Under the pieces are notes generated by a model. The model did no database searches, had not been told where the DNA came from, and saw only the letters and a list, made by a program, of their open reading frames with translations. Below, piece by piece: positions 18,485 to 56,474 of a stretch of DNA of 64,000 bases. A program made the position numbers and the translations under genes. Position 1 is the stretch's first letter; every line of letters begins with the position of its first letter. Source of the DNA: Azolla caroliniana (lineage: Eukaryota > Plantae > Polypodiophyta); contig JBHGNT010000001.1 of NCBI GenBank assembly GCA_043228905.1, forward strand, positions 18,848,001-18,912,000, given 5' to 3'.

Positions 18485-18507
18485 AGGAGGCGGCAGAAGA
18501 GCAGAAG

Positions 18508-29643: not shown

Positions 29644-29644
29644 A

Positions 29645-30332
29645 ACACCAACGGGCATGAGCGACCATGTGTGGTCCTCGCCTAAAGCTGGAACACAAAG
29701 ATCAATGGGTGTGAGCGACCATGTGCGGTTCTCACGGGGAGCATGAACACCAATGGGCATGAGTAACCATGTGGGTTCCTTGTCGGGAACCGGAACGGTC
29801 CTCGCTGAGACTTGGAACACGAACACCAACGGGCGTGGGGCGTGAGCAACCATGTTGTCCTCATCGAGAAATGGAACACGAACGCGTGAGCGACCATGTG
29901 GCCCTCATCGGGAACAAGAACACGAACGGGAGTAATCGACCATATGTGGTCCTCACCGGGAACTGGAACATGAACAACAACGAGCATGAGCGACCATGTC
30001 GGTCCTCACCGGGATTTGGAACACAAACAATAGTTGGAGTGAGCGGCCATGTGCGGTCCTCACCGGAGACAGGAACACGAACGGGAGTGAGCGGCCAACT
30101 GCGGCCCTCACCGGGAATAGGAACACGAACGGGCGTGAGTGACCATGCGGCCGTCACTGGGAACTCGAACATGAACGTGCGTGAGCGACCATGCGGCCCT
30201 CACTGGGAACTTGAACACGAATGGGCGTCAGCGACCATGCGGCCCTCACCGGGAACTCGAACATGAATGGGTGTGAGCGACCATGCGGCCCTCACCAGGA
30301 ACTGGAACACGAACACCAATGGGAGTGAGCGG
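29645..30332. repeat. Tandem array of 48-54-bp units forming the interior of T (continues at 37664-37815)
   Basis: Unit ggaactggaacacgaac(accaac)gggagtgagcg(a/g)cc(a/t)tgtgcgg(c/t)cctca(c/t)cg. Confidence 0.9.
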
Positions 30333-31205
30333 TGTCGAGATATTACGCGAGTGCGTATGGAAAACGAGGCGGGACCGCGGGGGTCTCGAACCAAAGAGCA
30401 AGCGAGGGAGGAGAAAGGGAGAGAACCGGCTACGCAGGACCGGGAATACACAGGGACACGGCCCTTCAGCACGGAGAACGCGAACAGACACCGACACAGA
30501 CAGATGCTAATGACTAAGTATGTATATTAACAAAAATGGCTAACACGACTACAACCCTCGATGGGGCACAGGTTGGCTACAACTGAACAAGCCGGCGAAC
30601 AGATGCCGATGCTTGTTCGCTTCGACGCACAAAGGGGGGGGGGGGGTAGCAGGTCGGAGGTGCTGCCGGAAGCACTCGGGCATTCCTCGAAACAGCGCGA
30701 GCCTCCTCGGTACCCTGCACAGAAAGCTATGGAGCTCAAGAAGGAAGGAAACAGAGAGAGAAGCGTCCAGAAACGGTCCGGCAGCACTTCGTCCTCTCTT
30801 CGCCCGATGCCTGCAACAGCTCTTTCCTGCTCCTTATATATGCCGTCGAGCAGGCCCTCCAGTCAGCTTTATTCCCTGTCCCTTTTGGACAGGGATCCGC
30901 TCCGTCCTTCACGCATCCGCGTAGTTACGCCGCCGACTCGTACAGTTCCTTCGCTCGCGCGCGCGACCGAAAAGACTGTTCGCGCGGTCTTTGTCTCCAC
31001 TTGTGTTAGGGCCCGTTCCCGCCGATTATCCTCCTAATTCGCTTCTATGTACAACTCGGAGCGTGCGCGCGTGAAGAACCGGTTCCCACGCCTTGGTGCG
31101 CCGATTCCGCCTATGGACGGTTTTCTTCACGACATCCGCCCCCACCTAACCGCGCATCCTCCGGTATGCGCCAAGAGAGTTGGGACGGAGAAAACCGGCC
31201 CGTCT

Positions 31206-34200
31206 TCATTCCTCGCCCGTCGGTTCTTCCTCGTTTTCGGATCGTTCGTCACTGCTGACTAGGAGAGCCGGGTCTGGCTCGTCGTCGTGTCGCTTCTTGA
31301 ACACTTTGATCCGCTTCCCTGCAACCGGTATCGCCATTCTCGTGCCGTCTAGTTCCGCCAGGTGATAAGTCCCGTTGTCATTGGCGCTCCGCACCACGTA
31401 AGGCCCGAACCACCTTCGCGCGAACTTCCGTGTAGCTCGGTGCTGGTTGTCGAGGCTGCTGTCGTAGACGAGCACCCAGTCACCTTCGTCGATTTTCTTC
31501 GGTCGGAGCCGGTGCGTTCGGTCGAACCTGGCTTTGTTCTTTGTCCTCGCCACCCGGAGCTTCTCCGCAGCCAGTGCCACGTCCTCCGGTCTCCGCTCGA
31601 GCTGTCGTATACGTGCGGCCAACAACTCCTCCCGGCTCATCTCGTCTCTCCAGTCGACCGTTGCCCACGAGGAGATCGTCCGTTCTATCGGCATGATCGG
31701 CTTCTGGCCGAACATGAGCTCCGTCGGCATGTACCCGGTTACCGAACTGTGCGTGGTCCGGTTTGCCCACAAGGCATAAGGTAGCAGCCGCGGCCAGTTA
31801 CCGACTTGGCCTCCGCATGCTCGAACCAGCGCCTTGACGATCGGTCCGTGTCCGCGCTCCACCTTTCCATTCGCCTCCGGATTGTACGCAGTGGTGAGCG
31901 AGAGCTTGACTCCCAGCCGGTCGAACAGCTCCGCGGCTTCTTCGGCGTCCAACTCCCCTCGGTCAGCCACGATCTTCCCGACGCACCCGTACCGGCATAT
32001 CACGTCCTCGATTAGGAACCGACATACGGCCGCGGTCGTTTTGTTCGGAAGGGCCCGGCCTTCCACCTGGTTCGTCAGATCCTCCCGCGCTAGGACCAGG
32101 TACCGCATCTGTCCTACCCCCATTGGCATCGTCACCAGATCTACCATCCATTTGAAGTGGATGGTCGGAGGGTACGTAGGGTGAAGCTCGTCCCGGTGTC
32201 GGACCACGGAGTGCATCTGACAGCTCTCGCAAGTTGTCACTAATCGGTGCACGTCCCGGTACAGTCCCGGCCACTAGTACTTCTCCTTTATCTTCTCGAA
32301 CGTGGCCCAAGTTCCACGGTGTCCGGCCCAAGGGCTGTCGTGGTAGGCCGTCAGCAGCTCCTCCTGTTCTTCCTTCATCGCCACCACCCGGAGCGGAGCG
32401 CCGTCCCTCTTCTTCGGGTGCTTCCATAGATAGCCATCCCGGAGAAAGAACCGGTACGCTTTCTTCCGGATCCGGTTGGCCTCGTCTTTCGTCCATGACG
32501 CATCCGGCGCCATTGTCTTCAAGAACCCGCCGATCTGCAGCCACTCCCCGTCGTACTTGCTCGCGTCGAAGTCGTTAAGCGCCGGAGTGCTCGTCCCGTC
32601 GGTTGTCACGTATGCTGCCTCGAAGAAGTCCACGCCGACCTCTTCGTCCTCCGAAACCATGCCGCCCTCGTCATCGAACCTCGCCCTCGAAAGCATGTCG
32701 GCCATGGCGTTGTCTTTCCCGGAAATGTGTTGTATTTCCGGGTCCAGGGACTTGATGTACGCTATCCACCTGAGCATTGCCAGGTCCGGCGTCGCGCATC
32801 CGGAAACCATGCCGAGAATCGGCATGCAGTCCGTCTCTATGATTACCTCTGTCCCGATCAGATAGTCCTTGTCGGCCTTCACCGCCGAAACAATACCCCA
32901 GAGTTCGCGTTTAACCTGGGCGTATCCTCGCTGCCGCTCACTGAGGACCTTCGCGCCGAATCGGATCGGAAACCGATTGCCGTCCTCGTCTTCTTGGTTG
33001 ACGACCCACCCGATTCCGGTCGGACTCGTGTCAACCGTTATGTACACTGGGGTGCCCTTCCTGTAGACGGCCTTTCGGAGCGCCGGTGCTGTCGAAAGAG
33101 CCTCCTTCAGCTTCCGGACCGACTCCGTGTGCTTGTCTAGCCATTCGAATCTTCGCCCTTTCTTCAATAATCCGTACAGCGGCTCCGCGACGTGCGCGTA
33201 ATGAGGGATCCATATGTGGTAGAAGGCGCATGCTCCCAAGAATCTTCGTACTTCCGTGACCGAGCTGCAATCAGGCTTCATCGCGGAGATGGCTTCTACC
33301 TTTGCCGGAGACGGTTTCCGGCCATATGGTCCACATAAATGTCCGACCACCATGATTTCCGACTGCCCGAAGGCTGATTTCTCCCCCGAGAAGGTGAGCC
33401 TCGCAGCCTCTAGCCTTTGCAGCACCTTCTCGCAATCGTCGATGTGCATCGCCACGAATCGCCGGCATCCGTCCGGCCCGATCGTCTCGTCCCTATCCGC
33501 TACCGGGCATCCCTTGATCGGGATGTCGTCCAGAAACGGCATGGTGATGTCCGGGATGCAGTCCCTCAGAACCTTGTTCATCGCATTCACCATGTGGGCC
33601 ACCGAGTTGGTCCCTCCTTGCGGCAGCGTACACATCCGCACTAGGCCGAGGGGAGTTCGCATCGTCGTAATGTCTCTGCTCTCCACGGCTAGCTGGAACT
33701 GGTCGTACCCTGAGTATAGATCACCGACCGAGTAAATCGACCTTCCGGCGAAGGCCTCCGCGAACTCGTCTATGGTCGGTCCAATCCCTGCGTTCCGAAT
33801 GGTCACCTTATTGACCGGTTGCAGGTCCTGAATGAAGCGCAATGATCCGTTTTTCTTTGGTACGGTAAACCATCGATTTGAATACGGGGCGCTCGACGGT
33901 TCGAGAATGCCCATATCAACCTTCTGCTTCAACAGCTCCATCAACTTCGGGATGTGAGCTCTCGGAACTGGAATTGGCTTGAGATTCCACGGTACATGCG
34001 GTACCGTGAATATCACCATCGGCTCCACGATCGTCGGGTTTACGCACCCGATTTCCTCCGGTGAGAATGCGAAGGCTTTCCCGTGCCTTCCGAGCATTCT
34101 CCGAAACCGGTGTTCCTCCGCCGGTAGTAGGAACCCGTCCCCACCGATTTTGAGCTCCCGGAGCGTCTCGTTGGTGAAGGTGTGTCCTATACAGGCCGGA

Positions 34201-34688
34201 TCTCGTAAGCTGGGGTCCGATGCAACCCCTTTGATTCGCGACTCGCTGCCCTCCGGTAACGGTACCGCGACTGGCCTTACCTTCCGGTCCACAGTCTTGT
34301 ACTTGGTGCTTACTCGGGCCGTCCGATCCGACTCGAGCCCCCGACCAAAGTCCGCGATGACTTCGTACATTTCTTCGGAATATACCGGTATCGTCCGGTC
34401 TTCGTTAAGGTCTTCTTCGACTACCTTCCCCAGCATTCCCAAGGTGTCGTCGAAGGAGACCGCCTCCACGGCGCCACTGATTTCTTCGTCAGGGCCGAGA
34501 ACTCCGCACGCTCGGAGTCTCCCCTCCGTCTTTGTTTTCTCTCGGCCGGCGATGCCGACCATCGTACATGCTCCGCTGTCGGAGAAGCAAAATTTCCTAC
34601 CTATTGTACACGGTTTTATCGTACAGATGTGGGGTTTTCCCGGAGCATCCGGACTGTCGCGGCCCCACGCCTTGGCAGTCCTCTCTAA
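31206..34688 (-). pseudogene. A2 pol (RT-RH-INT), one premature stop at 32274-32276
   Basis: 762-aa and 348-aa ORFs in the same frame; TAG replaces the TGG seen in A1 (KYWW). Confidence 0.92.
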
Positions 34689-36807
34689 AAATCCTCTCGG
34701 TTTTCGGAACCGAGGGAGTCGCGGTTACGTTCGTGGTTCGGCCGTACCGTCAGAAACTGGACCGAATGGCGCCCGTCTTGGCTTTTGACCCTCGCGTAGG
34801 CCGAACCATTGTCCAGCACCTTGGTCTCCATTCGCGCCGCCGTGATGTACGGCTCTCCCAGTATGACCGGATGCGAAGACGTCTCCTGCACGAAGAAGTG
34901 CTGGTCAATCTCGACGTCGCCGATCTTGACTCGCACATTCGGACAGGCCCCGTGCAGTTCCTCGGTGGCGCGCGTTGCTGCCCTTATTTTCCACCCGTGC
35001 TTGGTGTTGATCGGCCACTTGCCCTTCTTATAGAAGTCCATGGACATCAAATTGATCTCCGATCCGTGGTCCACCAAAGCTATCACCGGTTCCTGGACAT
35101 CGCCGATCTTCACCGGGGTTTCCGTGGTCGCTCGGGCCCAGTGTGGTCTCGAATAGTGGCTTTCCGCCCACTCGTCTCCCAGCGCCATGTCGTCTAGGTG
35201 CGTCGTCCGCACTTCCACCGGTCTTTCCGGTTCTGTCTCCGTTGACAGCCTCTTCCGTTTCACCAAGTCCACGATGGAGTCGTGGAACTCCTTCTTGGCG
35301 ATTCCCAGCACCTCTCGTAACGACAGCTCCACCTTGCTGTCGAGGATCCGTTCCTCCAGGACCTTTCGTAAGTCCGTGGTCCTTTCTATCTCCGTCCCCA
35401 GACGGTACCCGCCCTTCTGGGGTTTATCTTGCGTACCGGCCCCGCCGGCTTCGTCCCGTCGTGGCCCGGACCGGGTCTCGTATCGTTGTGAGGGCCCGGT
35501 CGTCCCGGGTTTCCCCACCCGCTTCTCTTCTACCAGAGCCTCGTAGTTCTGGCAAGCGGCTTCCACGAAGCCCGTCTCTTCCTCGACCGGGTCGCTCCAC
35601 CCGGTCATCTCCCGTACCCGTTTCTCCGCACGGTCTGATTCCTCCCTTTTAAGCCTTGCACCGGCAAGGCCTTCCAGCATCGTCGGCCAGAATCCGGCTT
35701 TGCTTTCCCTTCGGGCCTCGCCCCGACTCGAATGCCGGCCGACGCCGAGTAGTGGACGGTTTCCGCGTGTCGGGCCGCCGCCTCTTCCATCAACCTTTTC
35801 ATACCACCTCGCCCGTCGTTTCGGCTCAGGACCCTTCGGGTGTCGCTGGCATGCACCCGTCCTTCCCACAGGTACACCACCCTGTTCCTCAGCGCCTCCG
35901 CGAAGTCGCCGCAGTCCTTCCGAATGTGGCCGACTTCATCGCACCACATGCACCTGTTTCCTGCCGCCGGCCGTCGGTCACGAGCCGGTTCGCCACCTTC
36001 CCTTCGGGCTTGCGCGATTTGGAGGTCCTTTATCGCCCTCGTCAATTCCTCCAGCGCCGCTCCTCCGGTTGAGCCTCTGACTACGCCGGTCGAAGCCGAA
36101 CCGGTTTCCAACCATTCCCGGGTCTCTTCCTTTCGCACCTGTGGCGCTGGTTCGAGCTTTTTTGCTGCGACCGAGCCCGACCCGGTTGCCCCGTTATCCG
36201 CCCATTCTCGCCGTTTGTCGAAACGGCCACAGACTTTCTTGACAGCCGCCCAGTCGGTAGTGAGCCCGTCTTCGGTTTCCAGCAAGAGGCCCACTTGCTC
36301 CCGATCCCGCTCGTCGACCGACTTGACAAACAGCAAGACCCGGCTCGTGTCCAGGATGGTTCGGTCGAGCGCCGAAAGGCGCGCAAAGTTTTCCTCGAAC
36401 TCCCGGAGGAGTGCCGACGCGTTTCTTCCCTTCCCCGGGGACTCCACCCATTCCATGAACCTTCGCTTCGAAAGCCGGAGCGCGTCGTCCAACCCGTATT
36501 TCTCTAGGAGCCGACCTTCGAACTCCTCCCAGGTACGGCTCTCCGCCCGCACCTCGAGCACCTCCGCATGGATGCTCGGCATCGCCACTCGGGGAAATCC
36601 GGCAAGACGCCTTTCTTCCGGAATGTCCCGCATCAGCATCTCTGCACCGTAGGACGCCAAATACTTTGTGGCATCCTTCCCATCGAACCGGCCGATCGTG
36701 CCGACGACCGCCTCAATGGCTCTGTCGAGGGCACCGGTGCCCTCGCGCGCGTTTACAATCCGGTCCACGGCCGAAGCCATGGCCTCTGCAAGATCCGACC
36801 CCCTCAT
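34685..36807 (-). pseudogene. A2 gag-protease, one frameshift near 35720
   Basis: Overlapping 409-aa and 394-aa ORFs; CCHC knuckle and LVDHGSEIN. Confidence 0.9.
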
Positions 36808-37937
36808 CTTCTGCTCTTCTGCCGCCTCTTTCACGTCGGGTTCACCAAAGATGTCGAGATATTACGAGAGTGCGTATGGAAAACGAGGCGGGACCGCGGG
36901 GGTCTCGAACCAAAGAGCAAGCGAGGGAGGAGAAAGGGAGAGAACCGGCTACGCAGGACCGGGAATACACAGGGACACGGCCCTTCAGCACGGAGAACGC
37001 GAACAGACACCGACACAGACAGATGCTAATGACTAAGTATGTATATTAACAAAAATGGCTAACACGACTACAACCCTCGATGGGGCACAGGTTGGCTACA
37101 ACTGAACAAGCCGGCGAACAGATGCCGATGCTTGTTCGCTTCGACGCACAAAGGGGGGGGGGGGGGGGGGGTAGCAGGTCGGAGGTGCTGCCGGAAGCAC
37201 TCGGGCGTTCCTCGAAACAGCGCGAGCCTCCTCGGTACCCTGCACAGAAAGCTATGGAGCTCAAGAAGGAAGGAAACAGAGAGAGAAGCGTCCAGAAACG
37301 ATCCGGCAGCACTTCGTCCTCTCTTCGCCCGATGCCTGCAACAGCTCTTTCCTGCTCCTTATATATGTCGTCGAGCAGGCCCTCCAGTCAGCTTTATTCC
37401 CTGTCCCTTTTGGACAGGGATCCGCTCCGTCCTTCACGCATCCGCGTAGTTACGCCGCCGACTCGTACAGTTCCTTCGCTCGCGCGCGCGACCGAAAAGA
37501 CTGTTCGCGCGGTCTTTGTCTCCACTTGTGTTAGGGCCCGTTCCCGCCGATTATCCTCCTAATTCGCTTCTATGTACAACTCGGAGCGTGCGCGCGTGAA
37601 GAACCGGTTCCCACGCCTTGGTGCGCCGATTCCGCCTATGGACGGTTTTCTTCACGACAGCGGCCTTGTGCGGACCTCATCGGGAACTGGAACACGAACA
37701 CCAACGGGAGTGAGTGGCCTTGTGCGGCCCTCATCGGGAACTGGAACACGAACACCAACGGGAGTGAGCGGCCTTGTGCGACCCTCATCGGGAACTAGAA
37801 CATGAACACGAACAGGAAAGAAACTAAAAAATAGAGACAATGAAGTGATGTTGATGATGGTACGGTGGCGATGGTAACTCTAGAAGCAAGGGCGATGACG
37901 GAGACGGGTGATGCTTCAAGTTGGAAGGTGAACAAAC

Positions 37938-39243: not shown

Positions 39244-39759
39244 TGTTGAGCGGCAAGCTCAACCGGAGCCAGATCGGCTGAATAAGCTTGAGCCGGTAAG
39301 CGAGATGAATCGGTATGCCGGTGAGTGTTAACTCTTCGGGCCGGACAATGGCCTAACACAGGGTGTCTACGTGAGACACTTCACCAAAGGGTGTTACGGC
39401 AACCGGATTAGACTTCAACGCTTAATCCGACTTAGTTAAGTTACTTATAAGGATCGTCTTCATAACACGCGTAAGATATACAATTAAGACAGAACGGCAA
39501 TTGACACAGAGATATAACAACGCTTAAGCTTTCATTAATTAACCGCTAACTATTACATTGTATCCGGGCCTTTAAATAGGTTTCCGGTCTGTATTACAAA
39601 ACGGTGCCATCCGCACCTGTTCGGGATCGGTCCGGATCCGGAACGGCATACCGATTCCGGTCCGTCCGTCCACACTCACAGCTTAATTACAACCACATTC
39701 CTACTACTTAATTAGCTCTCCGTTTCCCACTCTGGACTCCTTTGCCGGCCGGTAACACA

Positions 39760-39775
39760 TGGCACGCCCGTGGGA
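39760..39775 (+). promoter_or_regulatory. Second PBS-like motif (tRNA-Arg type), antisense to element B, at the position of the PPT
   Basis: TGGCACGCCCGTGGGA starts 2 nt inside the 3' LTR boundary; no purine tract is present on the element strand. Confidence 0.65.
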
Positions 39776-39811
39776 TAATACCTTGTACGTCGAATCCACA
39801 ACCGACCCTTG

Positions 39812-42795
39812 CTATTCTTCGTCCAAAATGTCCAGAATGCTCAGTTCGAGAGGCTCCAATGGTTCATCTGGAAGTGGTTGTTGTTGTTGTTGTTGTTGCT
39901 GCTCTGTTGTAGTTTGCTGCGGCGGGTCTGTTGGTGGTTGCTGCGGCTGCTCCTCCGTTTGTGGCTCTGACACCGGCGTCTCCATCGTTGCTCCCTGCGT
40001 CGTGGTGGTCTCCGGTTGACTGGTTCCCGGCTGGCCCTCAGCCGACGACGGTTCCTCATCACTAAGGTTAACCGTTGTCGCTTCCTGTGCTTTTTCTTCC
40101 CGTACCCGGGATCGCTCGTAGCTTTCAAACTGGATTTGAGCGTCCAGCCTATCATCGTCCAGCTGAGCTACGAGCTGTCTGACCTGCGCCAGCTATTCAC
40201 CTGCAAGGACTTGGAAGTCATCGGCCAGCTCGTCCCATATGGCGGTGAAGTCCTCGGAAGTCAGCGTATAACAGTCATCTCCTTCCTTCCGCTGGTTTGC
40301 CACATCCGCCCGTAGCAACTGGAGTTCCGCCGCGTTTTGTGCCCACTTTGTCCACCATTTTACGGAGCTTTCATCAATCAAGTGCTTCGTCTGATTCAGC
40401 CATGCCCGGAGGATGGACTGAATCCGGCTCGTTCCCAATTGCGATTTGGTTTCTGCCGCTTGCCGTTCCTCCTTCAGTTGTTTGATGATTTTTACGTTGT
40501 CCTCCGCCTGCGCCTTGTAATGCGTCAGTTGCCTTTGATATGTACTTTGTAATTTCTGCAATACTGTAGACGCTCTCTCTTTGTCTTCCTGCTGCTGCTT
40601 CTGGAGCTCCATCCGGACCTTCTCCGCCTCTTCCACAAGCATCTTGTATTTTCCGCCCGTTCGTCGGCGATCGCCGTTGCAGCCCGATCAACTGCCTGCT
40701 GGAGCTCGGGCATCCGTTCTTTATGCTCTATTTCCAGCCGTTTGTAGTCCCGGTGCAGGTGCTCAAAATCATCCGTCTTTTGCTTGAGCCGTGCGTTGAT
40801 CTGACGACGGGCCCGGTCCTCGCGGTCCTGCTGCTGGCGGAGCTCTTCCTTTAGCCGTTCTATCTCTGTTTCCGCCGTTTTCCGCAGCTTGTCCTTTTCC
40901 TGCAGCACTTTGTCTTTCTCCTCCTTTAGCCGGTCGTACGCTTGATGGCCTTTCCGGAGGCTCTCCTCTGCCCGACGGAGGTTCTCAGCAGTCTTCTTTA
41001 ATTCGGCTTCGGCCGCCGTCTTCAATTCTCGTTCACTGCTCCTTAGCGCTTCTTGTGCGGCAAGTTCCTCTCTCAATTCCGCAAGCTCCCGAGCTTGCAC
41101 CGCATCTCTCACCGGAACGGTTTCCGTTGCCGGGGTCTTATTCCTATGTACAGGTCGTTCCGTTTCATTATTTTGTACACTTACCGGAGTCACCGGTGAT
41201 TGGATCCGTATTTTAGCCATCTCTGTCATGACCTGATCCAAATCTTTTTCAAGGCACCGGATTCTTGACCGGGCCGTCTCTAGTTGTTCGGTTGTGACGA
41301 GCAACCGTTCGCTTTGCGCTCTTTCTTCCGCCTCGATATACCCCACTCCTCCGGCTATCTGTTCGCCTATCCACCGGAGCCACAGGCTACCGATGCCTTG
41401 TTGTGCTTGCATGGAGGTTTGATAGATGGGCTCACTTGTAGAGGGGTGGTTCCGCCTGGTTGCGCCGAGTTGCAGTTCCGTTTCTGCCCGTGGACCATCC
41501 TGCTGTCCTTGGTTCCCTTGCGCTTCTTCTTGGCTGACCGAGGGAGGCTGCAGTGACCTTTCCGGCTCTGGCGGAATGGGACTTGCCGATGTTGCCGGTG
41601 GTGCCGGGGCTTCTGTTTCCGGTTCCTTCTGCACCGGTTCCGGTTCCTTTCTTGGCGTAGGAGTCTCAATATGGGGAGCCGGTGTTCCCTCCGTCTGAGG
41701 ATCCGAACGTTTCCCGGTTGTCTCAACGGTCCTTGCCGACGACCGTCGCTGGAGGTGCTCCGTAGGCTCCTCCTCTATTTCCTCCTCCTGAGCTCCGGCA
41801 TTGAGTTTTGCCGCCAAGGGGTCTACTTCCCGATTCACCGGTCGGCGGAGTGTGACCTTTACGGGTCGTGCCGGTGGTTCCTCCTACACCTCTGTTGGGC
41901 GCTTCCGGCTGCCACTTCCTGCTGCCGCCTGGTCTGCATCCACCGCCTTTCCCTTACTGGCCTTAGAGGCCAACAACTGCTGCCGTTTGGAAGCCGTCCT
42001 TGGGGTGCCGTCCGGCACTCTTCCTCGCTTCTTGGGCTGGACGGTCTGAACGGGTGGCACCAGCAGGATGAGCCACTACGTTACGGCGTGCCATATCCTT
42101 CGTCCGTCTCGGCCTTCTTTGCCGTCTTTGCCTCTGACGATCTCGATCGCTGCACACAACCCGTCTGCAATCAATACCGGCCAATCCACCTTGATCCCTT
42201 CATAGATGGCGATGATCATCCCTGCCCGGTTCTGCGGCATGATAGGGGGTCTAGGGTATATGTGGCCGTATTCATGGAGCACACGAGCAATTTCACGGAA
42301 CAACATATCTCCGCCGCCCTGTGTCCGGTAGCCCTTGCTGGCTAGAGAGTACTCACCAAAATACCTGATGAGTTGCTCCGGGGTTGGATTGTCGATCGTG
42401 AGTATGCCTCCCTCCGGAAGGCCTGTTAACGCTCGAATCGCCTCTGCCGTTATGACCTCTGTATCGATTTCCTTGATCACTTTGTCGGCTTCTTTGTGTG
42501 GCGGTACTTCCATCATCATCAGGAAGCCCTCGAGCCCGTGTTGCTTCAGCCATGTCTTGGCGGCTTCCGACAGCGTTTGCGGGTCCATTTCTGTGTCGAG
42601 GTCGGACTGCGGTGGCGAGGATGGATGGTGATGAGAGCGGGGTTGAGAAAGAGAGAGTTCAGAAGGCGGGTGTTCTCTTCTGATAATCTTGCAGCGTTTC
42701 GGTGCTTCTGTGCTCCTGGGTTCGCGAAAATAGAGGGTCTCTACGCGCAATAGTTTTTGTCTGTGCATCCTGGCGCCTTTTTCGAGTTTGTGCAT
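39812..42795 (-). pseudogene. Gypsy B extra ORF downstream of integrase (PMD-like N-terminus, P/E-rich linker, long coiled coil), frameshifted
   Basis: ORF pieces 42076-42795, 40525-41838, 40193-40642 and 39841-40155. Motif ITAEAIRALTGLPEGG; E/K/R/Q-rich helical tract. Confidence 0.75.
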
Positions 42796-42949
42796 GTTGC
42801 GTACTTAAAATAGCATTATGTCTTGTGGTGGCGCTTTAAATGCCCACTACGTACCTTTTCGCTCCACGCTCTTTCATCCATTCATTCCTTGCTTTTGCAT
42901 GATTGTTTTTTTTTTTTTTTTTTCAGTTATTATAATTATTAGTGTGACG

Positions 42950-43758
42950 TCACATGTCCGTTGGTCCTCCCGGACCCTTACCGGCCACATTCTCTCCGGT
43001 TACCGGCTTGCCGTCTCTGCCGTCTTCGTGGTTGCCGTCGGTCCTTTGCTCAAACGTGTTCTTAGGCATCGGTCCTCTATATGCCTTTAACCGGAATCCA
43101 TTCACCCATTTGCCCAGCACTTCGCCGGCAAGTGTCCCCAACTGGTAGGACCCATTATACTCCCGTGTTAGCCAATATGGTCCGGTCCATCTAAACCTTA
43201 GTTTACCCGGCATCTTGCCCATCCGGGTTTGGAATACTAGCACTGGTTTGCCAATTGCGAACATTTTTTCGTTACTTTTCCTGTGCCGGTCGACGAATGC
43301 TTTCCGTCGCCGTTGCTCTAATTCTAAATGTAGGATGTTGGCCAACCGTTGTTCCTCCAGCTCACACAGCGCTGTCAACCTTATTGTTTCCGACTCCTTC
43401 TCGTTCAGCCGTTCTCGTAGCTGAATCCGTAAGCTAGGTACTTGAAATTCTACCGGCATGACCGCCTCGAGTCCGAACGCCAACCGGAACGGTGTTGTTC
43501 GGATGCTCGTTTTGTATGCCGTCCGGTATGCCGAAAGCGCGCTATGTAGCTTTGTGTCCCAATCTGTCCGGTTCTCGTTGACGATCTTCCGAAGGATGTT
43601 CTGGAGCGTCTTGTTTGTTGATTCCGCTAATCCGTTCGCTTGTGGATAGTAGGGTGTGCTTCGTTTGTGGACCACGGCATAGAAGGTCGTTAGGCTTTCC
43701 ACCACTTGTCCGAGAAAGTGCCCCCCTTGGTCACTTATCAATTCAATGGGGCATCCGT
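42950..43758 (-). pseudogene. Gypsy B integrase core, 3' part
   Basis: ISDQGGHF, YYPQANGLAE, KLRFRWTGPY. Confidence 0.92.
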
Positions 43759-43824
43759 TGTCGTGAAGAATGTGCTTCACGATATAAAAATGAGCTTAAA
43801 TGTTGTATTTAATAATATTTGAGA

Positions 43825-44013
43825 GACTTGAACCCACATCCTTATATACGATGTACAATGTACATACCACTAGGCTAGGCTATTTATTTGTAAAAGTGTA
43901 TAATAAATGTGCTTCATGATATAAGAATGAAGCTATATATTGTATTAAGTAAAATTGAGGGACTTGAACCCTCAACCTTGTATATCAAGCACAAACCATA
44001 CACCACTAAGCTA
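43825..44013 (-). promoter_or_regulatory. Two tandem tRNA-type Pol III A/B-box modules in the A3 U3 (repeated in the 3' LTR)
   Basis: TAGCCTAGTGG with GGTTCAAGTC, and TAGCTTAGTGG with GGTTCAAGTC; both have a 43-nt A-to-B offset. Confidence 0.7.
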
Positions 44014-44270
44014 GGTTATTTGTTTTAAGGTTATATCCATCATTATACTTATCCCAATAAATGGGAGCTCAAATGAGCATGATGGCTATCATGCATCACA
44101 TGCAATGCATGTGCGCCAAATGGCGATCATGCATCAGATGTAACTCATGCATTACATGCATGACATTACCATATGCATGGAAATACTTATAAAAAGAGAG
44201 GAACGGAAAACAAAAGGGAATCAAGGAATCAAGAGAGAGTAAAAAAATAATACAATCAATTGAAGAAGAC

Positions 44271-44325
44271 TAGCTCATTGGGTGGAGAACCTCTCGTTTC
44301 GAAGTTGAGGTCGAGGGTTCAAATC
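44271..44325 (+). promoter_or_regulatory. Third A/B-box module in the A3 LTR, sense strand, downstream of the TATA box
   Basis: TAGCTCATTGG (44271) and GGTTCAAATC (44316), 45-nt offset. Confidence 0.65.
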
Positions 44326-44493
44326 AAGGGTCGGTATTGAAAAGATTCATCTTGCGATCAAGGATTGTAAAGTTGGTAAAATATTATATTTTTAATATAC
44401 ATCATGTTTATATCATATACTCTTGTTCTTTGAATCATACTTTGTCTCAATCTTCTTTCTTGAATCATACATTGTCTCTATCTTTTATCTATG

Positions 44494-44550
<57 letters not shown>

Positions 44551-44724
44551 TACTTGTAACTCTTCATCTTACTATCCTTAACCATTCTATCATCACCATA
44601 CAAGCCTTATTAAACTTAAGTTTCTTCAACTCCCCTTAACCTTAGTCCCCACGACTTCGCCGCACGAACCACAACTACCCCGACACATTTGGTGAACCCG
44701 ACGTGAAGGCGGCGACGAGGAGAA

Positions 44725-46839
44725 ATGGAGGAGCAAATGAGGCTTATGTGTACGATGATGGAACGAGTGATGCGGGAACAAGGGATGATGGCAAGCATCG
44801 ACAAAGCCGTCGACAATATTCTCGCACGAGTAGGAATCTTCGAAGGTATAAATTTAACAAGATTTCTGAAGATTTATAATGAAGAAATGCTTAAACGCGG
44901 TGTCGACGAAGCTACAAAAATTAATAGCTTTAGTCGAGTCGCTGCGATTGGGCTACAAGAGAAGATCCAAGAGCTCCAAAGGGAGAATCATACATGGACA
45001 ACATTCGAAAGGGCATTACTCAATGAATACAACCTCAACGATATGTCAAGGATGACAAGGCGAGCTTTCATGGATTGGGTAGAGTCTAATAAACATTTAA
45101 GTGTTTTGGAAGTATTAAAAGAGTTTTCTGAAAGATTTGAGCAACTAAATGTTAGAGATAGAAATATAATAGTGCCAGATAAAGTAATATTGTTTCTACA
45201 AGCTACTAATATTAAAGACAGGAAGGACTTGGGAATGCTTTTAGAAGATCAGAATAGTCCAAGTGGACTTACCGAAGATTGGGAGGAGGTGAAAAGGGCG
45301 TGCGCCCATTTCTGCAAAAGAAAGTTATGGTTTATGGATTTGCCCGACAGAAATGAGGAAGAAACGGGGAACGAGTCGGGAGAAAAGAAAGTAGAAGAAT
45401 CAGTCTTACACGAATTAGTGAAAGGCATGAAAGACTTGTCGATCAAAGTGACGAAGCTAGAATCGGGACAAAGCTCGACTTCGTCAAGGCAAGGAGGTGG
45501 AATGGTCCGAAGGTGTATGTGGTGTGATAGTATCGACCACCAGAAGAAAGATTGTCAAGAGCATAGGGATGCTCTTAATCATAATAAAATCTACTATCAA
45601 GATGGCAAGATTCACTCAACTGAGACTCGACAACCACTTCAACTCAACTTCGGGCGAGGAGGAATGAAAAAGCTAATGGAAGATGCCGAGAGAGAAACGA
45701 CTCAAGCGATACAATCCGTGGCAACCTTAGGATTGCACGTAGAAGACTCATATGGTGGATCTGGCTTTTGGCAAGATGTGATGGATTATGCAAGAAAAGG
45801 GAAGGTTCGAGTGGATGAATTAAAAAGAGCGGGAGATGAAATACGAAACTTCACTGGATGGAATGATCCAGTAGACGCGCTATCAGCATTCGCCCAAGTG
45901 AATGCACAAGATGTGCTAGTGGAAGAGAAGCGGAAGAGAGCTGAGGAAGCTGATCCGACAAAGAGACATGAGACACGAGAACAAAAGAGAAGGGAGATGG
46001 AAAAGGGTGCTATTGAGCCGAAGGAAGCTGATAAAGTAAAAGGAAAGACAGGCCCATCTTTCAAGCTTGCCTCAGACATAGAAACAACGACGGATATAAA
46101 AAAGGTACTAGAAACAAGAATATTAAATAGTAAGGTAGAATTTACTTTAAGAGAAGTGTTGGGTATAGCAAAGAAAGAATTTCATGAAGTTATCATAGAT
46201 ATTATTAGAAGGAAGAGACAGGTGACGGAGGAAATTACGGGAGGGTGTGCAACAACACTCCAAGATTTGTATGGTGGCACCATCAATGCTGCAAGTGTAA
46301 AAAACCAGAATGATGTTGGCGTCCATGAAGGGGACAGGAGTCACTATACAAGGGACCATTGGGCTCGAGCAACAACGGAGGCACCTGCAAAAATTGGGGA
46401 GCAGCAAATTCCATGTATTGCTTTGATTGATCATGGATCAGAGATTAACATGATGTCATCGGAATTTTACACTCGAGGACGATGGCCGATCGACAAGAAT
46501 CATGGGTGGAAAATAAGAGCTGCCACAGAAACTACGGAGGATCTATTCGGAGCATGTCCTAGTGTGAAGGTAACAATTGGTGATGTCTCGGTGAATCAAA
46601 ATTTCTTTGTGCAGGATCGATCAACCTACCCCGTCATCCTTGGCTAGCCCTACATCACCGCAGTGAGGATGGAAACAAAGGTTATTGATGATGGTTCGGC
46701 TTTCGCGAGAATCAAGAGTCAAGATGGAAGAAAGACTGTCCAATTCTTAACCGTGAGGCCCAACCATGAAAGAAACAAAGAATGCTTGAGGGAACATCCA
46801 ATTCAAGAGATGGATGAAGAGTTTTCCCAGGATTTTTAG
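44725..46839 (+). CDS. A3 gag-protease (single premature TAG at 46645-46647)
   Basis: CMWCDSIDHQKKDC and LIDHGSEIN. The frame continues after the stop to ...FSQDF*. Confidence 0.88.
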
Positions 46840-49800
46840 ATAGGGCTTTTACAGGTAGGGGCTGTGATAGCCCGAGCATAAAAGAAAACCCCATAAATAA
46901 TAATGTAAATAAAGATATTCCTTGTACAATCTCATCTAATGGTGCTACTTTTATACTAAAAGTAAATAATAAAAAAATACAAAATGCTTTCGAGTACTTT
47001 AAGTGTTCTGGATTAATAGATGATGATGAAGAAATTCAGGATATGTTTGAAGAATTAAGTTTTGAAGATACAATAACTCATTTGGAAGCAATGGAAGAAG
47101 ACAACGAAATCCAAGTTCCTGTCCATTCAATCAAGATGTATGAGGTCATTGAAGAAGTTGCTCGAAAGGATCATGAAGCACATGTACTAACAAAATACAA
47201 GACAGTGGAGAAGAAGGTTCGTCCTATTGCCGCTCCACTTCCAGGGGATAGTGAAAAGGCAATCAAAGAAGCAGCCACAGAGCCAATGATCAGAGACCCA
47301 CGAAAGGTAGGACATGTGTTTACTCCGGAAACAATACAAGGGATGAAAATAGGAGGGGGTGACTTCCTATTACCCGCTGAAGAAAAGCAGTTCAGGGAGA
47401 TGTTAAAAAGGCATGGAAAGGCGTTTGCATTCCAACCGGAGGAAATAGGGTGTGTGGATCCAGAAATTGTGGAGCCCATGGTTATATTCACTATCCCTCA
47501 TATTCCATGGAACTTTAAGCCAATACCCATGCCTAGGGCTAGAATCCCTCAACTATTAGAACTTTTGAAAGAAAAGATAAGGATGGGTATCTTGGAACCA
47601 TCGAACGCTCCTTACTCGAGTCGATGGTTCACTGTGTTAAAGAAAGATGGGCGACTCCGATTTATCCAAGATATGCAACCCGTGAATAAGGTAACAATCC
47701 GAAACTCGGGAGTAGGGCCAATTGTGGATGAGTTTGCTGAGATGTTTGCAGGAAGAGCTATATATTCAATGGGAGACCTTTATTCTGGATATGATCAATT
47801 TCAACTTGCTATCAAAAGTCGAGATATAACTTCTATCAAGACACCTATAGGGTTAGTACGGATGTGCACCTTGCCGCAAGGAGCGACCAACTCAGTGGCG
47901 CATATGATGAATGGAATGAACAAGGTACTTCGTGATTTTATTCCTCATATTACAATGCCTTTTCTAGATGATGTTCCAATTAAGGGATGCAAGGAGGAAG
48001 AGAAGAACGAGGAATTGGACGAAAGTGGTTGCCGTCAATTCGTTGCTGATCATATCAAGGATTGTGAGAAGGTGCTATCAAGGATGGAAGAAGTGCATTT
48101 GACCTTATCAGGGGCGAAGTCAATATTTGGGGCAAAAGAGATATTAATAGTTGGTCATATGTGTGGCCCGTATGGGAGAAAGCCATCCCCAACCAAGGTC
48201 AATGCAATTCAAAATATGCAAGAGGAATGTACATCCATCTCAGAAGTACGAAGGTTTCTGGGGGTATGTGTTTTTTACTGTAAATGGATTCCGCATTATG
48301 CCCATTTATCTGAACCTTTATATAGACTCCTAAGAAAAGGAGAGACATTTGAATGGAGTGAAGAGCATTCAGAGGCAATGAAGAAATTGAAGTACTACTT
48401 GGCACAAGCTCCACCATTAAAGCAACCAGACTACACCCGGCCCATATATCTCACAGTAGACTCTAGTCCCATTGGAATTGGATGGGTGATAAGCCAACAA
48501 GATAGGGAAGAAAGGTATCCAGTCCGATTCGGGGCAAAGGTTCTTAGTGGTCGACAAAGAAAATATGCACAGGTGAAAAGAGAGCTATGGGGGATAGTAA
48601 CAGCTGTAAAGACAGACCGAGATTACTTAATTGGTGCTGAAGTAATAATAGAAACTGATTGTTTGCCTATTCTGGGTATCATAGCTAATTGTGATATTCC
48701 AGATCAAGCCATGTTAAGATGGTGTATCTATATTAGATCAATCAACCCTGAAGTTCGACATATCTCTGGGAATAGAAATGCAGTAGCAGATATGTTATCA
48801 AGAGCAAGGTATGAGGAAGAGGAGATTCCAGACTCGGACGATGAGGACAAAGAACAAACAGTCCTTACCACAAGCATTACTCGGGAAGGAGGAATGCAGT
48901 TTCTAGAAGAGGAGTATGAAGATGAATTCAAGGAAATAGGGAAATACCTACAAACCCCTAACAAGTACAAAGGTCGATCTGGAAAAGAGTTCGCACAGTT
49001 TCGCAAGAAAGCCCATAAGTTCTTCCTGTATGAAGGATATCTATGGCGACATCCGAAAACCAAGACTGGAAACCCGCAAAGAGTAATAGGTTCTGAAGGG
49101 CAAAGAAAGGAGATAATCAAAGAGCTGCATGACAAAGAATGGGCTGGTCATCGAGGAGTGTGGGCCACTTTCAGTAAGATTAAAGAACGATTTTGGTGGC
49201 CTCGATACTATGAGCAAATAAAAAAGTATGTGGAAACTTGTCCCACTTGTCAATATTATTCAAATGTAAAATTTTGTGATGAATTACACCCAACATACTC
49301 ACCGGGAGTGCATTACAAGTGGATGATAGATTTGGTAACAATGCCACTTGGAGTAGGACAAAAGAGATACTTAGTTCTTGCTAGAGAAGATCTAACAAAT
49401 CAAGTGGAAGGTCGTTCATTGAGAACAAAAGGGACATTAGGAGTATGTCAATTCATCTTGGAGGACATTGTTTGTAGATATGGATGTATCGGGAAGATAG
49501 TGGCAGATAGGGGAGAACTCAATTCTGCGGAAGCTCAAGATTTTTTCGACAAAATAGGAATTCGGCTTTCTTTGACAACGGCGTACAATCCAGAAGCTAA
49601 TGGAAAGGTAGAAAGGGGACATGGGCCAATAGTCAAAGCTTTGGCAAAGGCATGTAGAGGACGGGTTAGTGATTGGCCAAAAACCTTACCCTATGCACTA
49701 TGGGCTGATAGGACAACTCACAGCACTGTTACTGGATATATGCCTGCAGAATTAATCACAGGACAGAAGCCAATAATGCCAATTGAAGAAAAGATAACTA

Positions 49801-50294
49801 CATGGGTTGTGTTGCCTTGGGAATCAGAAATGAGTAGGGAAGATTTACTTGCGGTTCGAATACGACAACTTCAATCAAGGATAGAAGACATAGAAAAAGC
49901 AGCTACTAGATTGAAAGAGGCAAGAATCAAGAATAAGGACAGATTTGACAAGATGAAAAGAATACGACCAAGAAAGGTGCAAGAGGGAGATTGGGTATTA
50001 GTATATGATAATAGCCTAGATAATCAATACAGTACTATTCGGAAGTTTGCAAAAAGATGGTTTGGACCTTATGAAGTTAGGAAAATAACAGATAAAGCCA
50101 CATATTTCCTCAATGAATTAGATGGGACAGAAATTTGTATCCCAATTGCAGGAAAAAGGATTAAAATATTTAAAAGGAGGGAGTCATTAGAGCCTGAATT
50201 TTATGAAGAAGTAGAAGAACTAAAAGAATCGGAAGAAGTGTTGGATGAACTCTGCACAACCAATGTGCAAGTTCAGAGGGGGTGGGTGTCGTGA
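46836..50294 (+). CDS. A3 pol (RT, RNase H, integrase), uninterrupted, in the -1 frame relative to gag
   Basis: 1083-aa ORF from 47043; the frame is open back to the slippery site at 46830. PFLDD, TVDSSPIG, NPEANGKVERGH. Confidence 0.95.
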   Translation, partial: LDRAFTGRGCDSPSIKENPINNNVNKDIPCTISSNGATFILKVNNKKIQNAFEYFKCSGLIDDDEEIQDMFEELSFEDTITHLEAMEEDNEIQVPVHSIKMYEVIEEVARKDHEAHVLTKYKTVEKKVRPIAAPLPGDSEKAIKEAATEPMIRDPRKVGHVFTPETIQGMKIGGGDFLLPAEEKQFREMLKRHGKAFAFQPEEIGCVDPEIVEPMVIFTIPHIPWNFKPIPMPRARIPQLLELLKEKIRMGILEPSNAPYSSRWFTVLKKDGRLRFIQDMQPVNKVTIRNSGVGPIVDEFAEMFAGRAIYSMGDLYSGYDQFQLAIKSRDITSIKTPIGLVRMCTLPQGATNSVAHMMNGMNKVLRDFIPHITMPFLDDVPIKGCKEEEKNEELDESGCRQFVADHIKDCEKVLSRMEEVHLTLSGAKSIFGAKEILIVGHMCGPYGRKPSPTKVNAIQNMQEECTSISEVRRFLGVCVFYCKWIPHYAHLSEPLYRLLRKGETFEWSEEHSEAMKKLKYYLAQAPPLKQPDYTRPIYLTVDSSPIGIGWVISQQDREERYPVRFGAKVLSGRQRKYAQVKRELWGIVTAVKTDRDYLIGAEVIIETDCLPILGIIANCDIPDQAMLRWCIYIRSINPEVRHISGNRNAVADMLSRARYEEEEIPDSDDEDKEQTVLTTSITREGGMQFLEEEYEDEFKEIGKYLQTPNKYKGRSGKEFAQFRKKAHKFFLYEGYLWRHPKTKTGNPQRVIGSEGQRKEIIKELHDKEWAGHRGVWATFSKIKERFWWPRYYEQIKKYVETCPTCQYYSNVKFCDELHPTYSPGVHYKWMIDLVTMPLGVGQKRYLVLAREDLTNQVEGRSLRTKGTLGVCQFILEDIVCRYGCIGKIVADRGELNSAEAQDFFDKIGIRLSLTTAYNPEANGKVERGHGPIVKALAKACRGRVSDWPKTLPYALWADRTTHSTVTGYMPAELITGQKPIMPIEEKITTWVVLPWESEMSREDLLAVRIRQLQSRIEDIEKAATRLKEARIKNKDRFDKMKRIRPRKVQEGDWVLVYDNSLDNQYSTIRKFAKRWFGPYEVRKITDKATYFLNELDGTEICIPIAGKRIKIFKRRESLEPEFYEEVEELKESEEVLDELCTTNVQVQRGWVS

Positions 50295-51025
50295 AGAATG
50301 TGCTTCACGATATAAAAATGAGCTTAAATGTTGTATTTAATAATATTTGAGAGACTTGAACCCACATCCTTATATACGATGTACAATGTACATACCACTA
50401 GGCTAGGCTATTTATTTGTAAAAGTGTATAATAAATGTGCTTCATGATATAAGAATGAAGCTATATATTGTATTAAGTAAAATTGAGGGACTTGAACCCT
50501 CAACCTTGTATATCAAGCATAAACCATACACCACTAAGCTAGGTTATTTGTTTTAAGGTTATATCCATCATTATACTTATCCCAATAAATGGGAGCTCAA
50601 ATGAGCATGATGGCTATCATGCATCACATGCAATGCATGTGCGCCAAATGGCGATCATGCATCAGATGTAACTCATGCATTACATGCATGACATTACCAT
50701 ATGCATGGAAATACTTATAAAAAGAGAGGAAAGGAAAACAAAAGGGAATCAAGGAATCAAGAGAGAGTAAAAAAATAATACAATCAATTGAAGAAGACTA
50801 GCTCATTGGGTGGAGAACCTCTCGTTTCGAAGTTGAGGTCGAGGGTTCAAATCAAGGGTCGGTATTGAAAAGATTCATCTTGCGATCAAGGATTGTAAAG
50901 TTGGTAAAATATTATATTTTTAATATACATCATGTTTATATCATATACTCTTGTTCTTTGAATCATACTTTGTCTCAATCTTCTTTCTTGAATCATACAT
51001 TGTCTCTATCTTTTATCTATGCTCG

Positions 51026-51077
<52 letters not shown>

Positions 51078-51217
51078 ATACTTGTAACTCTTCATCTTAC
51101 TATCCTTAACCATTCTATCATCACCATACAAGCCTTATTAAACTTAAGTTTCTTCAACTCCCCTTAACCTTAGTCCCCGCGACTTCGCCGCACGAACCAC
51201 AACTACCCCGACACCGT

Positions 51218-54200: not shown

Positions 54201-56430
54201 TCCTCCGGATTCGAGAAGAGTACCGGTGCCGGTGATGGTTCTCCTGCCGTCATGGCCGTCTTCAGTCCTTCCGTGAATCTAGGCACGAATTGTAGGAGTC
54301 TTCCTAGTGGTAACGTAATCTGGCATTCTTGCAACGCCTGCCATGTCTCGTTCTCGGAGTGACTACCGCCGGCAAGCCCTGCGGTGTTCTCCTTTTGCTG
54401 CTGTAAGTCTGTGACATTCTCCTCGTTTGCTTTCTTTACCCATTCCGTTGCTTGTTTGCGGATGGTCTCCTGTGTCTCCCATTCTTTGGCCATGCCCTTC
54501 GATCTTGTGGTCACCTGCTGCAGGTCTGCCACCTCAGGGACTACCATATTTACCGTCGGTCGTTTTTCATAACTCTTCACCGGGCATTGGTTACTATAAT
54601 GGCCTTCCTGTCTGCAGTAGTAGCAGTAGGCTTTCCGGGCATTGCTAGATTCGGCATTGTCTGTTGTACCCGGGGCAGGTCCTACGGTACGCGCGGGGTT
54701 TTGTACCGGTTGGCTACTTGGAGCGCCTTGTTCCGGGTCCCGGGGGTAGCCACCTTTTTTAAAATGCCGTTTTTTGTTAAAGCTCTTCTTATTACGGTAC
54801 TCTTGACGGGGTTGCCCGTTATATCGGCCGTATTCCTCCCGTTGCTGACGATACCCGGGGGAGTGCTCCCGGTCGTACTGTTCGTATCGTCTATTCTAAT
54901 CCTGGTGCCGATCATGCCGGTCATAGTTATCTCGCCGATCACCGTACCGGACATCATTTTCCCGTCGCTCGCCGTACCAGACATTATTTTCCCATCGCTC
55001 GCCATACCGGACCTCATTTTCCTGTCACTCGCCATACCGGACATCCTGTGCCGGTCGGTCACGGTCCATTCGCCGCCAGCGTTCATCTTCTTCGTCCCGG
55101 CTGCTGCGTGGTTCAATTTGTCGGACGGGCGGTGCTTGCCGAGTCAACAGATTATACTCGCACCTATCCGTCGTATGGCTCTTGGACTGACAGATTACAC
55201 ATTGCGTCCTCATAGTGCATTCTAGAGCCAAGTGTCCGGAATTCAAGCAGGTTGTGCACTGTATTGCTTGCCGAAACCGGAGGTCTTCATCGGACGGTAA
55301 CGCCCGTTGAAGTGCGCCCAATGTGAGCCAGGAGCTTGTCTTTTCCATCTCTTTCACCCGGTCAATGACCTGGTCGATGGTACTTGTACGGAAATCGATT
55401 ACCGTGCAAACCGTGCGTAGGGGTTCCCGGAGTGCGTTTAGGAATATCGTTCGTAATTCCTCCTCCGGGGGTGCACGGGTAAGCTGACTATGCATCCGTT
55501 GAAACCGGATGACAAATTGGGGAATGCTCTCCCCTGCCTCTTGCCGGATAGTATAAAATAAGCCTACCATTACGGTCTGGTCCACCTCCTTTTGAAAAAA
55601 ATGCATGAATTTAGCTTTTAAATCTACAAAGGTGTTGATGGTAGACGGGTCCTGCGTCCAGCGCCATCTTGCTGCCGGTCCCTCCAATGTGACGCCAAAC
55701 TCTACTGTCTTAGAGCGTTCTTCTTCCTCTGGTGTCAGTCGCTGGGACACATGGTTGCCTTCCCATGTCTATTCAAATGCGTGCACATGAGCTTCCGCGT
55801 CCGGATCATCTCTATACTTGGAGTACTGGAACAACATGTCGTCGTCCAGTATCGGTGCGCGGGCTGGTAGTGTTGGTGCTCGTTCCGGAATTTTCTCCGA
55901 TGTCGGTGGTCTTTCCCGATTTGATTCCGGTGTCGGTTGTTTCTCTTCCGCTGGTGACGGAGGCCTCTCCTCCTCGACTTCCGGTGTCAGAGGTCGTTCT
56001 CCTTCTGCTGGTTCCGGGGGTTCCAGCGTTAGCACTTCCGGTTCCGGTTCCGGTGTCGGTAAGGTATCCGATCCTTCGTCCTCCAGTCCACCCGGGGTTT
56101 CGTTGCTGCTACGGTAGTTCGTGTGCACGCTGTATTCCCCTTCGGAGTCCGATTCATATGCTGAAAAGGCCTCTGCTTCCCCTTCTCCGTTTGCCAACGC
56201 GTGGAGAAGGGATTCGGTTTCCTGGAGGCTGCTTAGGCTGCTGCCGTCGTCCGGGTGCGATGTTTGCTGTAACCAGTGGGAGTCCTCCGCTACTCTCCGG
56301 ATTACGTTGGAAAACGAGCGATCCGCTCTAATTTCCTGCGCCGCTTGCTGGAAGGCCTCGCGTCTCCTTTGCCTTTCAGCAAGGCGTCGAGTTCGATCTG
56401 TAAACAGGTCGTGCGTTGATCTAGACATCC
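51218..56430 (-). pseudogene. Gypsy B gag-PR-RT-RH-INT(N), several frameshifts
   Basis: Retrotrans-gag-like LEGPAARW, three zinc knuckles, VIDGGSGVN (PR), VCVDYRKLN and VFLDD (RT), VDASDIAIG (RH), H..H..C..C and WGLDFVGP (INT). Confidence 0.92.
52047..52414. repeat. 184-bp tandem duplication in the B RNase H
   Basis: 52047-52230 is repeated at 52231-52414. Confidence 0.88.
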
Positions 56431-56464
56431 ATCCGTGCCGTCGTTCGCTGCAAAAACAGGAATC

Positions 56465-56474
56465 GTGGTCGCCA
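56465..56474 (-). promoter_or_regulatory. Canonical PBS of gypsy B (tRNA-Arg type)
   Basis: Element strand reads LTR-CAGTTTT-TGGCGACCAC, matching the recalled tRNA-Arg(UCG) end ...GTGGTCG-CCA. Confidence 0.7.

Follow-up and report, generated by a model that had tools for sequence, protein, structure and literature searches.

HIV-1 and the yeast element Ty3 replicate in the canonical way of LTR elements: a host tRNA annealed at the primer-binding site (PBS) starts the minus strand, and an RNase H-resistant polypurine tract (PPT) located before U3 starts the plus strand, a mode of plus-strand priming which the available portions of PMC13191261 and PMC5371799 take to hold generally among LTR retrotransposons and retroviruses. 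The T-arm of the primer tRNA is described there as pairing too, with the bipartite PBS of Ty3 and with the primer activation signal (PAS) of HIV-1 (PMC5371799, PMC13191261), and Ty3 has a further tRNA-pairing segment near its 3′ end (PMC5371799). In the RNA, these Ty3 and PAS segments have the antisense orientation relative to the tRNA, and they aid minus-strand priming by the same tRNA. Hepadnaviruses, which have no LTRs, prime the plus strand from a non-PPT RNA, a remnant of the capped viral RNA that is moved to DR2. No description of tRNA-primed plus strands was found in the literature that we searched, mainly open papers.

Here we analyse element B, an LTR retrotransposon lying in a 64,000-nt stretch of Azolla caroliniana DNA (hereafter the window). 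Element B resembles HIV-1 and Ty3 in its LTRs, its presumably tRNA-primed minus strand, its RNase H and a plus-strand primer that would end beside U3, and also in an 18-nt stop at A58 and in primer copies remaining at cDNA ends. It differs from them in lacking a PPT, its apparent plus-strand primer being a host tRNA acting in trans and on DNA. Pairing with the T-arm is shared with Ty3 and the HIV-1 PAS, and the three-way junction that we propose below for element B is comparable to the HIV-1 PAS contact; however, the RNA of element B is in the tRNA sense, so that just the minus-strand cDNA can pair, and the putative plus-strand tRNA of family B differs from its minus-strand primer. As in hepadnaviruses, a non-PPT RNA primer would be placed at a complementary site on minus-strand DNA, although that primer is a viral RNA remnant, whereas in element B it would be a host tRNA in an element with LTRs.

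Organisation and classification of element B

Several LTR retrotransposons lie nested in one another in the window, parts of which are also covered by contigs of the sequencing runs X1 and X2. Element B occupies positions 39326-56913 on the minus strand, is ~10.1 kb long once a nested insertion is subtracted, and is flanked by copies of the target site duplication (TSD) GTGAG at 39321-39325 and 56914-56918, as identified by comparison of LTRs and TSDs. Its LTRs are 432 nt each, with 6 differences between the 5′ copy (56482-56913) and the 3′ copy (39326-39757; TG...CA, with a TATA-like box at 39571-39578). Following the element strand, the gag region (Retrotrans_gag with a CCHC knuckle, by Pfam; 53729-55768) is succeeded by a stop-interrupted region encoding RT, RNase H and the N-terminal part of the integrase (51214-53798), which contains a 184-bp tandem duplication (52046-52413), by the C-terminal part of the integrase (42950-43758), and by extra sense ORFs 3′ of the integrase (40193-42804) which are interrupted by stops and frame changes. 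The minus-strand orientation given in the earlier note was confirmed, as gag, RT, RNase H and integrase all lie on that strand, and the opposite orientation is ruled out by this domain order together with 11 of 20 relatives examined upstream of their sites (see below).

Between the two parts of the integrase lies a different Ty3/gypsy element (43759-51213, plus strand), which has a 4-bp TSD and, as its PPT, a normal G-rich tract. Its PBS, and that of its two relatives within the window (17831-24805 and 30333-37665), would be for tRNA-Trp. Its TSD, CCGT (NCGN type), and its ordinary PPT fit the Phygy description in the part of PMC6317226 available. Degenerate arrays of 46-54-nt repeats adjoin the LTRs of another element (29644-30332 and 37654-37808).

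The domain order of element B found by Pfam in its ORFs, gag-RT-RH-INT, is that of Ty3/gypsy elements. Pfam detected no protease, no archaeal-type RNase H (aRH) in the ORFs and no chromodomain after the integrase, which sets the element apart from the chromoviruses. In two relatives (L154 and L141) RNase H runs directly into the integrase with no extra domain, and its four acidic motifs are intact. The extra ORFs matched no Pfam family, Athila ORF-1 (PF03078) included, and their weak Atlas score against Athila ORF-1 (0.86) is a lead only; across autonomous families these ORFs retain a conserved N-terminal part of ~150 aa and a long coiled-coil-like part. A scan of IMG/VR with the integrase as query gave no matches, and a search for RT homologues gave 1189 proteins, the 3 named among the matches listed being fern proteins with 52-59% identity.

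We conclude that element B behaves as a non-chromovirus Ty3/gypsy element, closest in make-up, by structure and description, to Athila or to the aRH-less Tat lineages. Both belong to the plant OTA superclade, which includes Athila and the aRH-less Tat 'zero' lineages according to the available parts of PMC6317226 and PMC13468544. Like Athila (OTA), for which no aRH, a 5-bp TSD, a length of 7-23 kb and an extra ORF are characteristic, element B has the order gag-RT-RH-INT with no aRH or chromodomain found, a 5-bp TSD, ~10 kb, an extra sense ORF and a non-Met primer tRNA; in structure it is also compatible with the Tat 'zero' lineages. However, the dominant PBS in Athila corresponds to tRNA-Asp/Asn/Ala (mainly Asp) and not to tRNA-Arg as in element B, and the lack of a PPT distinguishes element B from Athila and Tat 'zero' alike. 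Tat elements with aRH (TatI-III, Ogre, Retand) carry an archaeal-type RNase H, none of which was detected here, and Phygy differs in its 4-bp NCGN TSD, tRNA-Trp PBS and lack of an extra ORF, against the 5-bp TSD, tRNA-Arg and extra ORFs of element B. In the accessible text of PMC6317226, PBS screening is described beside the 5′ LTR only, and the words PBS, PPT and primer are absent from PMC13468544.

The presumed site of minus-strand priming, PBS1, reads TGGCGACCAC on the minus strand from 56474 downward (56462-56474), 13 nt complementary to host tRNA-Arg(UCG) with CCA included, as matched to the host tRNA-Arg(TCG) genes. The earlier note had described a normal PBS next to the 5′ LTR; the PBS is confirmed, with the refinement that a 7-nt spacer (56475-56481) separates the two. 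Across families PBS1 corresponds to Arg(UCG) in some and to Arg(UCU) in others, and its spacer from the LTR ranges from 2 to 11 nt.

A tRNA match at the position of the PPT

At the other inner end of element B, the plus-strand sequence TGGCACGCCCGTGGGA starts at 39760, separated from the 3′ LTR by 2 nt (39758-39759, TG on the element strand). On the element strand this segment (39760-39776, hereafter the 3′ site) corresponds to positions 59-76 of tRNA-Arg(UCU) minus one C, matching 17 of the last 18 nt of the host tRNA, CCA included; the copy in the window has one G>A change, at tRNA position 59. The earlier note had recognised a tRNA-like 3′ end with CCA stopping 2 nt before the LTR and had assigned it to tRNA-Arg(UCU) with a 1-nt gap, both of which are borne out by the host tRNA-Arg(TCT) genes. 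The tRNA-Arg genes were located by targeted patterns; a search with RF00005, which listed 62 tRNAs but gave no isotypes, was left aside. Upstream of the acceptor-end match, a 13-nt insert with a 4-bp hairpin (39777-39789) is placed between tRNA positions 58 and 59 and is preceded by a segment matching the T-arm of this tRNA (positions 49-58; 39790-39799), which is less conserved than positions 59-76, so that the whole site, made of acceptor-end match, hairpin and T-arm match, spans ~40 nt. The minus-strand cDNA copy of the 3′ site reads as a primer-binding site.

No PPT precedes the 3′ LTR, as the earlier note had stated for element B and as we found in other copies too, 7 of the last 15 nt being purines in 31/31 representatives, and a G-rich tract occupies the PPT position in 5/5 of the window's other LTR elements. 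Runs of 5-14 purines are present within 100 nt upstream. The dinucleotide between site and LTR differs by family (TG, GG, AG, CG, TA, TT, TC), and CCA lies at a constant 2 nt from the LTR (4 nt in a few families, according to where the LTR is taken to begin). The last 30 nt of tRNA-Arg(UCU) are predicted to form 29 bp around the hairpin with a typical minus-strand cDNA (-53.5 kcal/mol), and the prediction for the same cDNA with tRNA-Arg(TCG) is -34.0 kcal/mol, values computed with RNA:RNA parameters and therefore a rough proxy for tRNA:DNA pairing. G>A changes make up 13 of 24 departures from the tRNA, which fits G:T wobble and equally fits methylation decay, and we do not use them as evidence. 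Two near-identical copies at C19:4.72 and 4.78 Mb (L336, L337) have lost the hairpin through a short deletion.

Conservation of the 3′ site

The junction pattern matched 3081 places in the genome and its reversed control none, and a pattern which fixed the hairpin and the LTR start only, with no constraint on the 19 bases of the site, had 2017 matches against 8 in the control; these two comparisons rule out chance or a single-copy accident. All 100 of the hairpin-anchored matches listed hold the 3′ site when read by eye. A query restricted to internal sequence retrieved 30 copies, the one in the window included, and all 30 carry the site (19 exact, 10 with one change, 1 with two changes), in agreement with the earlier expectation that the motif would be conserved in other copies; the 30 loci fetched with a site-spanning query carry it as well. 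At 70% identity, the LTRs of the first 30 loci of the junction pattern form 9 groups, so that at least 9 groups have the site. Of 20 upstream regions, 11 contain the element's own gag, RT or integrase in sense, placing the site at the 3′ LTR, and the other 9 are short non-coding elements, truncated or nested.

All three integrase subclades have the 3′ site, C and D being just 63-70% identical to B, in a tree of 15 rows with no outgroup and no PPT-bearing sister, in which row L155 is a B-type host copy and not the nested family; the PPT-bearing elements of the window yielded no integrase alignment of ≥130 aa and are hence absent from it. A scan of metagenomes found 116 stretches with the site pattern, and since the 80 that were read are 67-98% identical to their nearest locus in the Azolla genome, related genomes appear to share the 3′ site. 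Because patterns fixing part of the site were used to choose both the 31 representatives and the copies from metagenomes, their invariance is partly built in.

The 3′ site is always Arg(UCU), whether PBS1 is Arg(UCG) or Arg(UCU), and thus does not track PBS1. Relatives that had switched to another tRNA at this site, which the earlier note proposed to look for, were not found among those examined. Pairing between PBS1 and the 3′ site as a conserved function was rejected, as the two show no co-change. Short non-coding elements with ~2.3-2.7 kb between LTR starts (L146, L147, L149 and metagenome loci such as L203) carry both tRNA sites, which indicates that non-autonomous dependants keep the 3′ site.

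Covariation in the hairpin and the T-stem

The 3′ segment can fold into a hairpin as RNA, and the window's own copy folds poorly alone as DNA (z +1.46). Four pairs of the inner helix are changed on both sides among the 31 family representatives, a covariation score reached by 0/500 shuffles, although kinship among the sequences inflates this control. The 3′ strand of the T-stem is invariant in 31/31, part of it having been fixed by the selection patterns, whereas the 5′ strand, its would-be cis partner, fails to pair in 3 to 14 of 31, depending on the pair, and compensating changes are absent. The 3′ strand therefore does not seem to be held by a partner in cis, and its invariance fits pairing with the tRNA in trans.

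Copies of the tRNA fused to LTR ends

The search for tRNA genes also picked up LTR ends to which truncated, CCA-bearing tRNA copies are fused. An 18-mer of the tRNA type, which carries the C absent from the element sites, matched 69 places at ≤2 mismatches and none in the control. We examined every one of the 28 in which a 2-nt spacer and TGT follow, and sampled the 41 with other spacers. These 28 were sorted into 11 plus-side relics, 10 minus-side primer copies at U5 ends, as expected from the PBS1 primer, 5 in-situ sites with an extra base and 2 unplaced; the minus-side copies and in-situ sites were left out of the plus-side count.

The 11 plus-side relics represent 8 independent events, in each of which sense tRNA sequence is followed by the family dinucleotide and the start of U3, with no element hairpin preceding the tRNA sequence. 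They lie at C2:12.00-12.02 Mb (three duplicated copies), C2:12.74, C3:21.70, C6:16.78, C9:12.74, C11:11.47, C16:17.53 (two tandem copies) and C20:0.88 Mb. In 4 of the 8 events the copy is exactly 18 nt long and ends at tRNA position 59, and in the other 4 it reads further, to 56-64 nt in total; A58 is read as T in one of the four read-through relics, for which a later mutation is also possible. For HIV-1, a stop of RT at m1A58, giving an 18-nt primer copy, is described in the available part of PMC13191261. The LTR carrying the relic continues into PBS1 and internal sequence, and is hence a 5′ LTR, in all 5 of the 8 events that are readable, a location which fits a copied plus-strand primer because plus-strand strong-stop DNA ends up there. 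At C16:17.53 Mb the element is full-length with an intact AATAG TSD, and its relic matches the tRNA, from which the 3′ site of this family departs. Set against about 3000 normal sites, these 8 events are rare and partly rearranged, and they show that tRNA priming or pairing happens, not that such priming is the main route.

Two LTR-LTR junctions of family B were found, both in elements with TSDs. One consists of an 18-nt copy of the minus-strand primer followed by TG and the LTR, and the other of TGG followed by CCA, TG and the LTR. Element sequence from upstream of CCA is absent from the LTR-LTR junctions examined (C16 twice, C20, C489). Reading primers from cDNA ends has precedents in HIV-1 and Tf1, where primer sequences at LTR-LTR junctions and cDNA ends are described in the accessible portions of PMC5618025 and PMC11042837. 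A control search with the element-type 17-mer lacking the hairpin, which would detect about half of random junction contexts, gave 6 matches, of which 5 are in situ with a decayed or deleted hairpin and the remaining one is L334.

Proposed priming of the plus strand by a tRNA

Taking the site, its conservation, its match to the tRNA, the covariation of the hairpin and the tRNA-U3 fusions as established from the sequence, we infer that the tRNA would anneal and prime at the 3′ site and that a share of normal replication would follow this route. We put the probability that tRNA-Arg(UCU) primes plus-strand synthesis at the 3′ site of element B and its relatives at roughly 80%. The minus strand would be primed at PBS1 by tRNA-Arg(UCG) in family B and by Arg(UCU) in other families, and after the first strand transfer it would proceed through U3 and the 3′ site while RNase H removes the RNA. 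tRNA-Arg(UCU) could then anneal through its 3′ 18 nt, with one C bulged, and through its T-arm across the hairpin, creating a three-way junction, and RT would extend from CCA, the first DNA bases being the dinucleotide and then U3. Normally RNase H would remove the tRNA and integrase would trim the dinucleotide; should removal fail, the finishing minus strand may copy the tRNA, mostly to m1A58, and the copy would land outside the 5′ LTR.

The earlier note had offered two possibilities, a second tRNA-Arg annealing to the minus-strand cDNA as plus-strand primer or a tRNA-mimic segment of the element RNA priming by itself. The former is supported, and favoured over the latter, because what is joined to the starts of U3 is genuine tRNA sequence and not that of the element. 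It is nevertheless conceivable, if unlikely, that the element's own CCA-ending RNA segment survives RNase H as the primer and that the fusions arose when the minus strand occasionally switched template to a co-packaged tRNA: the segment stops where a PPT would and can fold as an RNA hairpin whose inner helix covaries in cis, L334 is an element-type match without hairpin, the CCA in junction L278 could derive from element or tRNA, and a switch from element RNA onto tRNA is expected to leave an identical local junction. However, a self-primer of any sequence would pair with its own cDNA, which leaves nothing to tie families with non-aligning LTRs to one host tRNA, and the T-stem 3′ strand is conserved without a partner in cis. 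Template switching, moreover, predicts fragments with one LTR, whereas the readable relics are all 5′ LTRs with internal sequence, and it depends on the same duplex of tRNA and DNA, in which the free 3′ OH constitutes a primer.

A role of the 3′ site at the RNA level, either as a decoy or by pairing with PBS1 for circularisation or dimerisation, with the plus strand starting at an upstream purine run and integrase trimming a long overhang, seems to us very improbable. Site and PBS1 are indeed complementary in families with an Arg(UCU) PBS1, the clade already tolerates the variable gap between LTR and PBS1, and the purine runs mentioned above are present, but family B switched PBS1 to Arg(UCG) while its 3′ site stayed Arg(UCU), leaving little complementarity, and a start further upstream agrees neither with the fixed distance between CCA and LTR nor with LTR-LTR junctions that hold nothing from upstream of CCA. 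We give even less credence to an antisense transcript from the 3′ LTR on which the tRNA would prime at the site as at an ordinary PBS. Such a transcript would leave identical relics, and the plus-strand order of LTR, 2 nt and TGG... is exactly PBS-like; yet the sole TATA-like box noted and all domain-matching ORFs are on the sense strand, and a second packaged RNA species would be required.

Under priming by tRNA-Arg(UCU) in trans, the broader picture, to which we commit somewhat less firmly but still consider probable, is that a whole, recently active plant Ty3/gypsy lineage, together with its non-autonomous dependants, gave up the PPT and normally primes both cDNA strands with host tRNA, the second on DNA through a hairpin-split site engaging acceptor end and T-arm, the primer having been fossilised at 5′ LTR ends. 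If true, this would be a natural high-copy lineage using a host tRNA on a DNA template, an exception to the PPT rule, and RT would be able to initiate from a tRNA:DNA duplex in vivo. Both strands would then depend on the supply and modification of host tRNA, and a second target for control by tRNA fragments may open. Annotation tools that require a PPT would miss thousands of copies, or mis-orient them because both inner ends resemble a PBS.

Other junctions with tRNA sequence

Several junctions outside the plus-side count also contain tRNA sequence. At L334 (C10:10875380), L320 and L326, tRNA-like ends stand beside LTR-like starts in families matching none of those studied. In several families (L031, L040, L043, L044, L082-L085) the U5 spacers are joined to 30-70 nt of CCA-bearing tRNA-Arg(UCU) or Arg(UCG), and these minus-side copies show read-through past position 58. 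L046 (C597:1-540) is an inverted junction in which a copied stretch of tRNA-Arg(UCG) links two U5 ends tail to tail. In L297 (C2:18769765) the 3′-site hairpin of one family is followed by the tRNA 18-mer and then by the U5 end of another family, reversed, as if a strong-stop end had annealed at the 3′ site. Finally, elements at C16:17.527 Mb, C20:5.156 Mb and C489 have normal TSDs and start with two or three tandem 5′ LTRs connected by primer-derived linkers.
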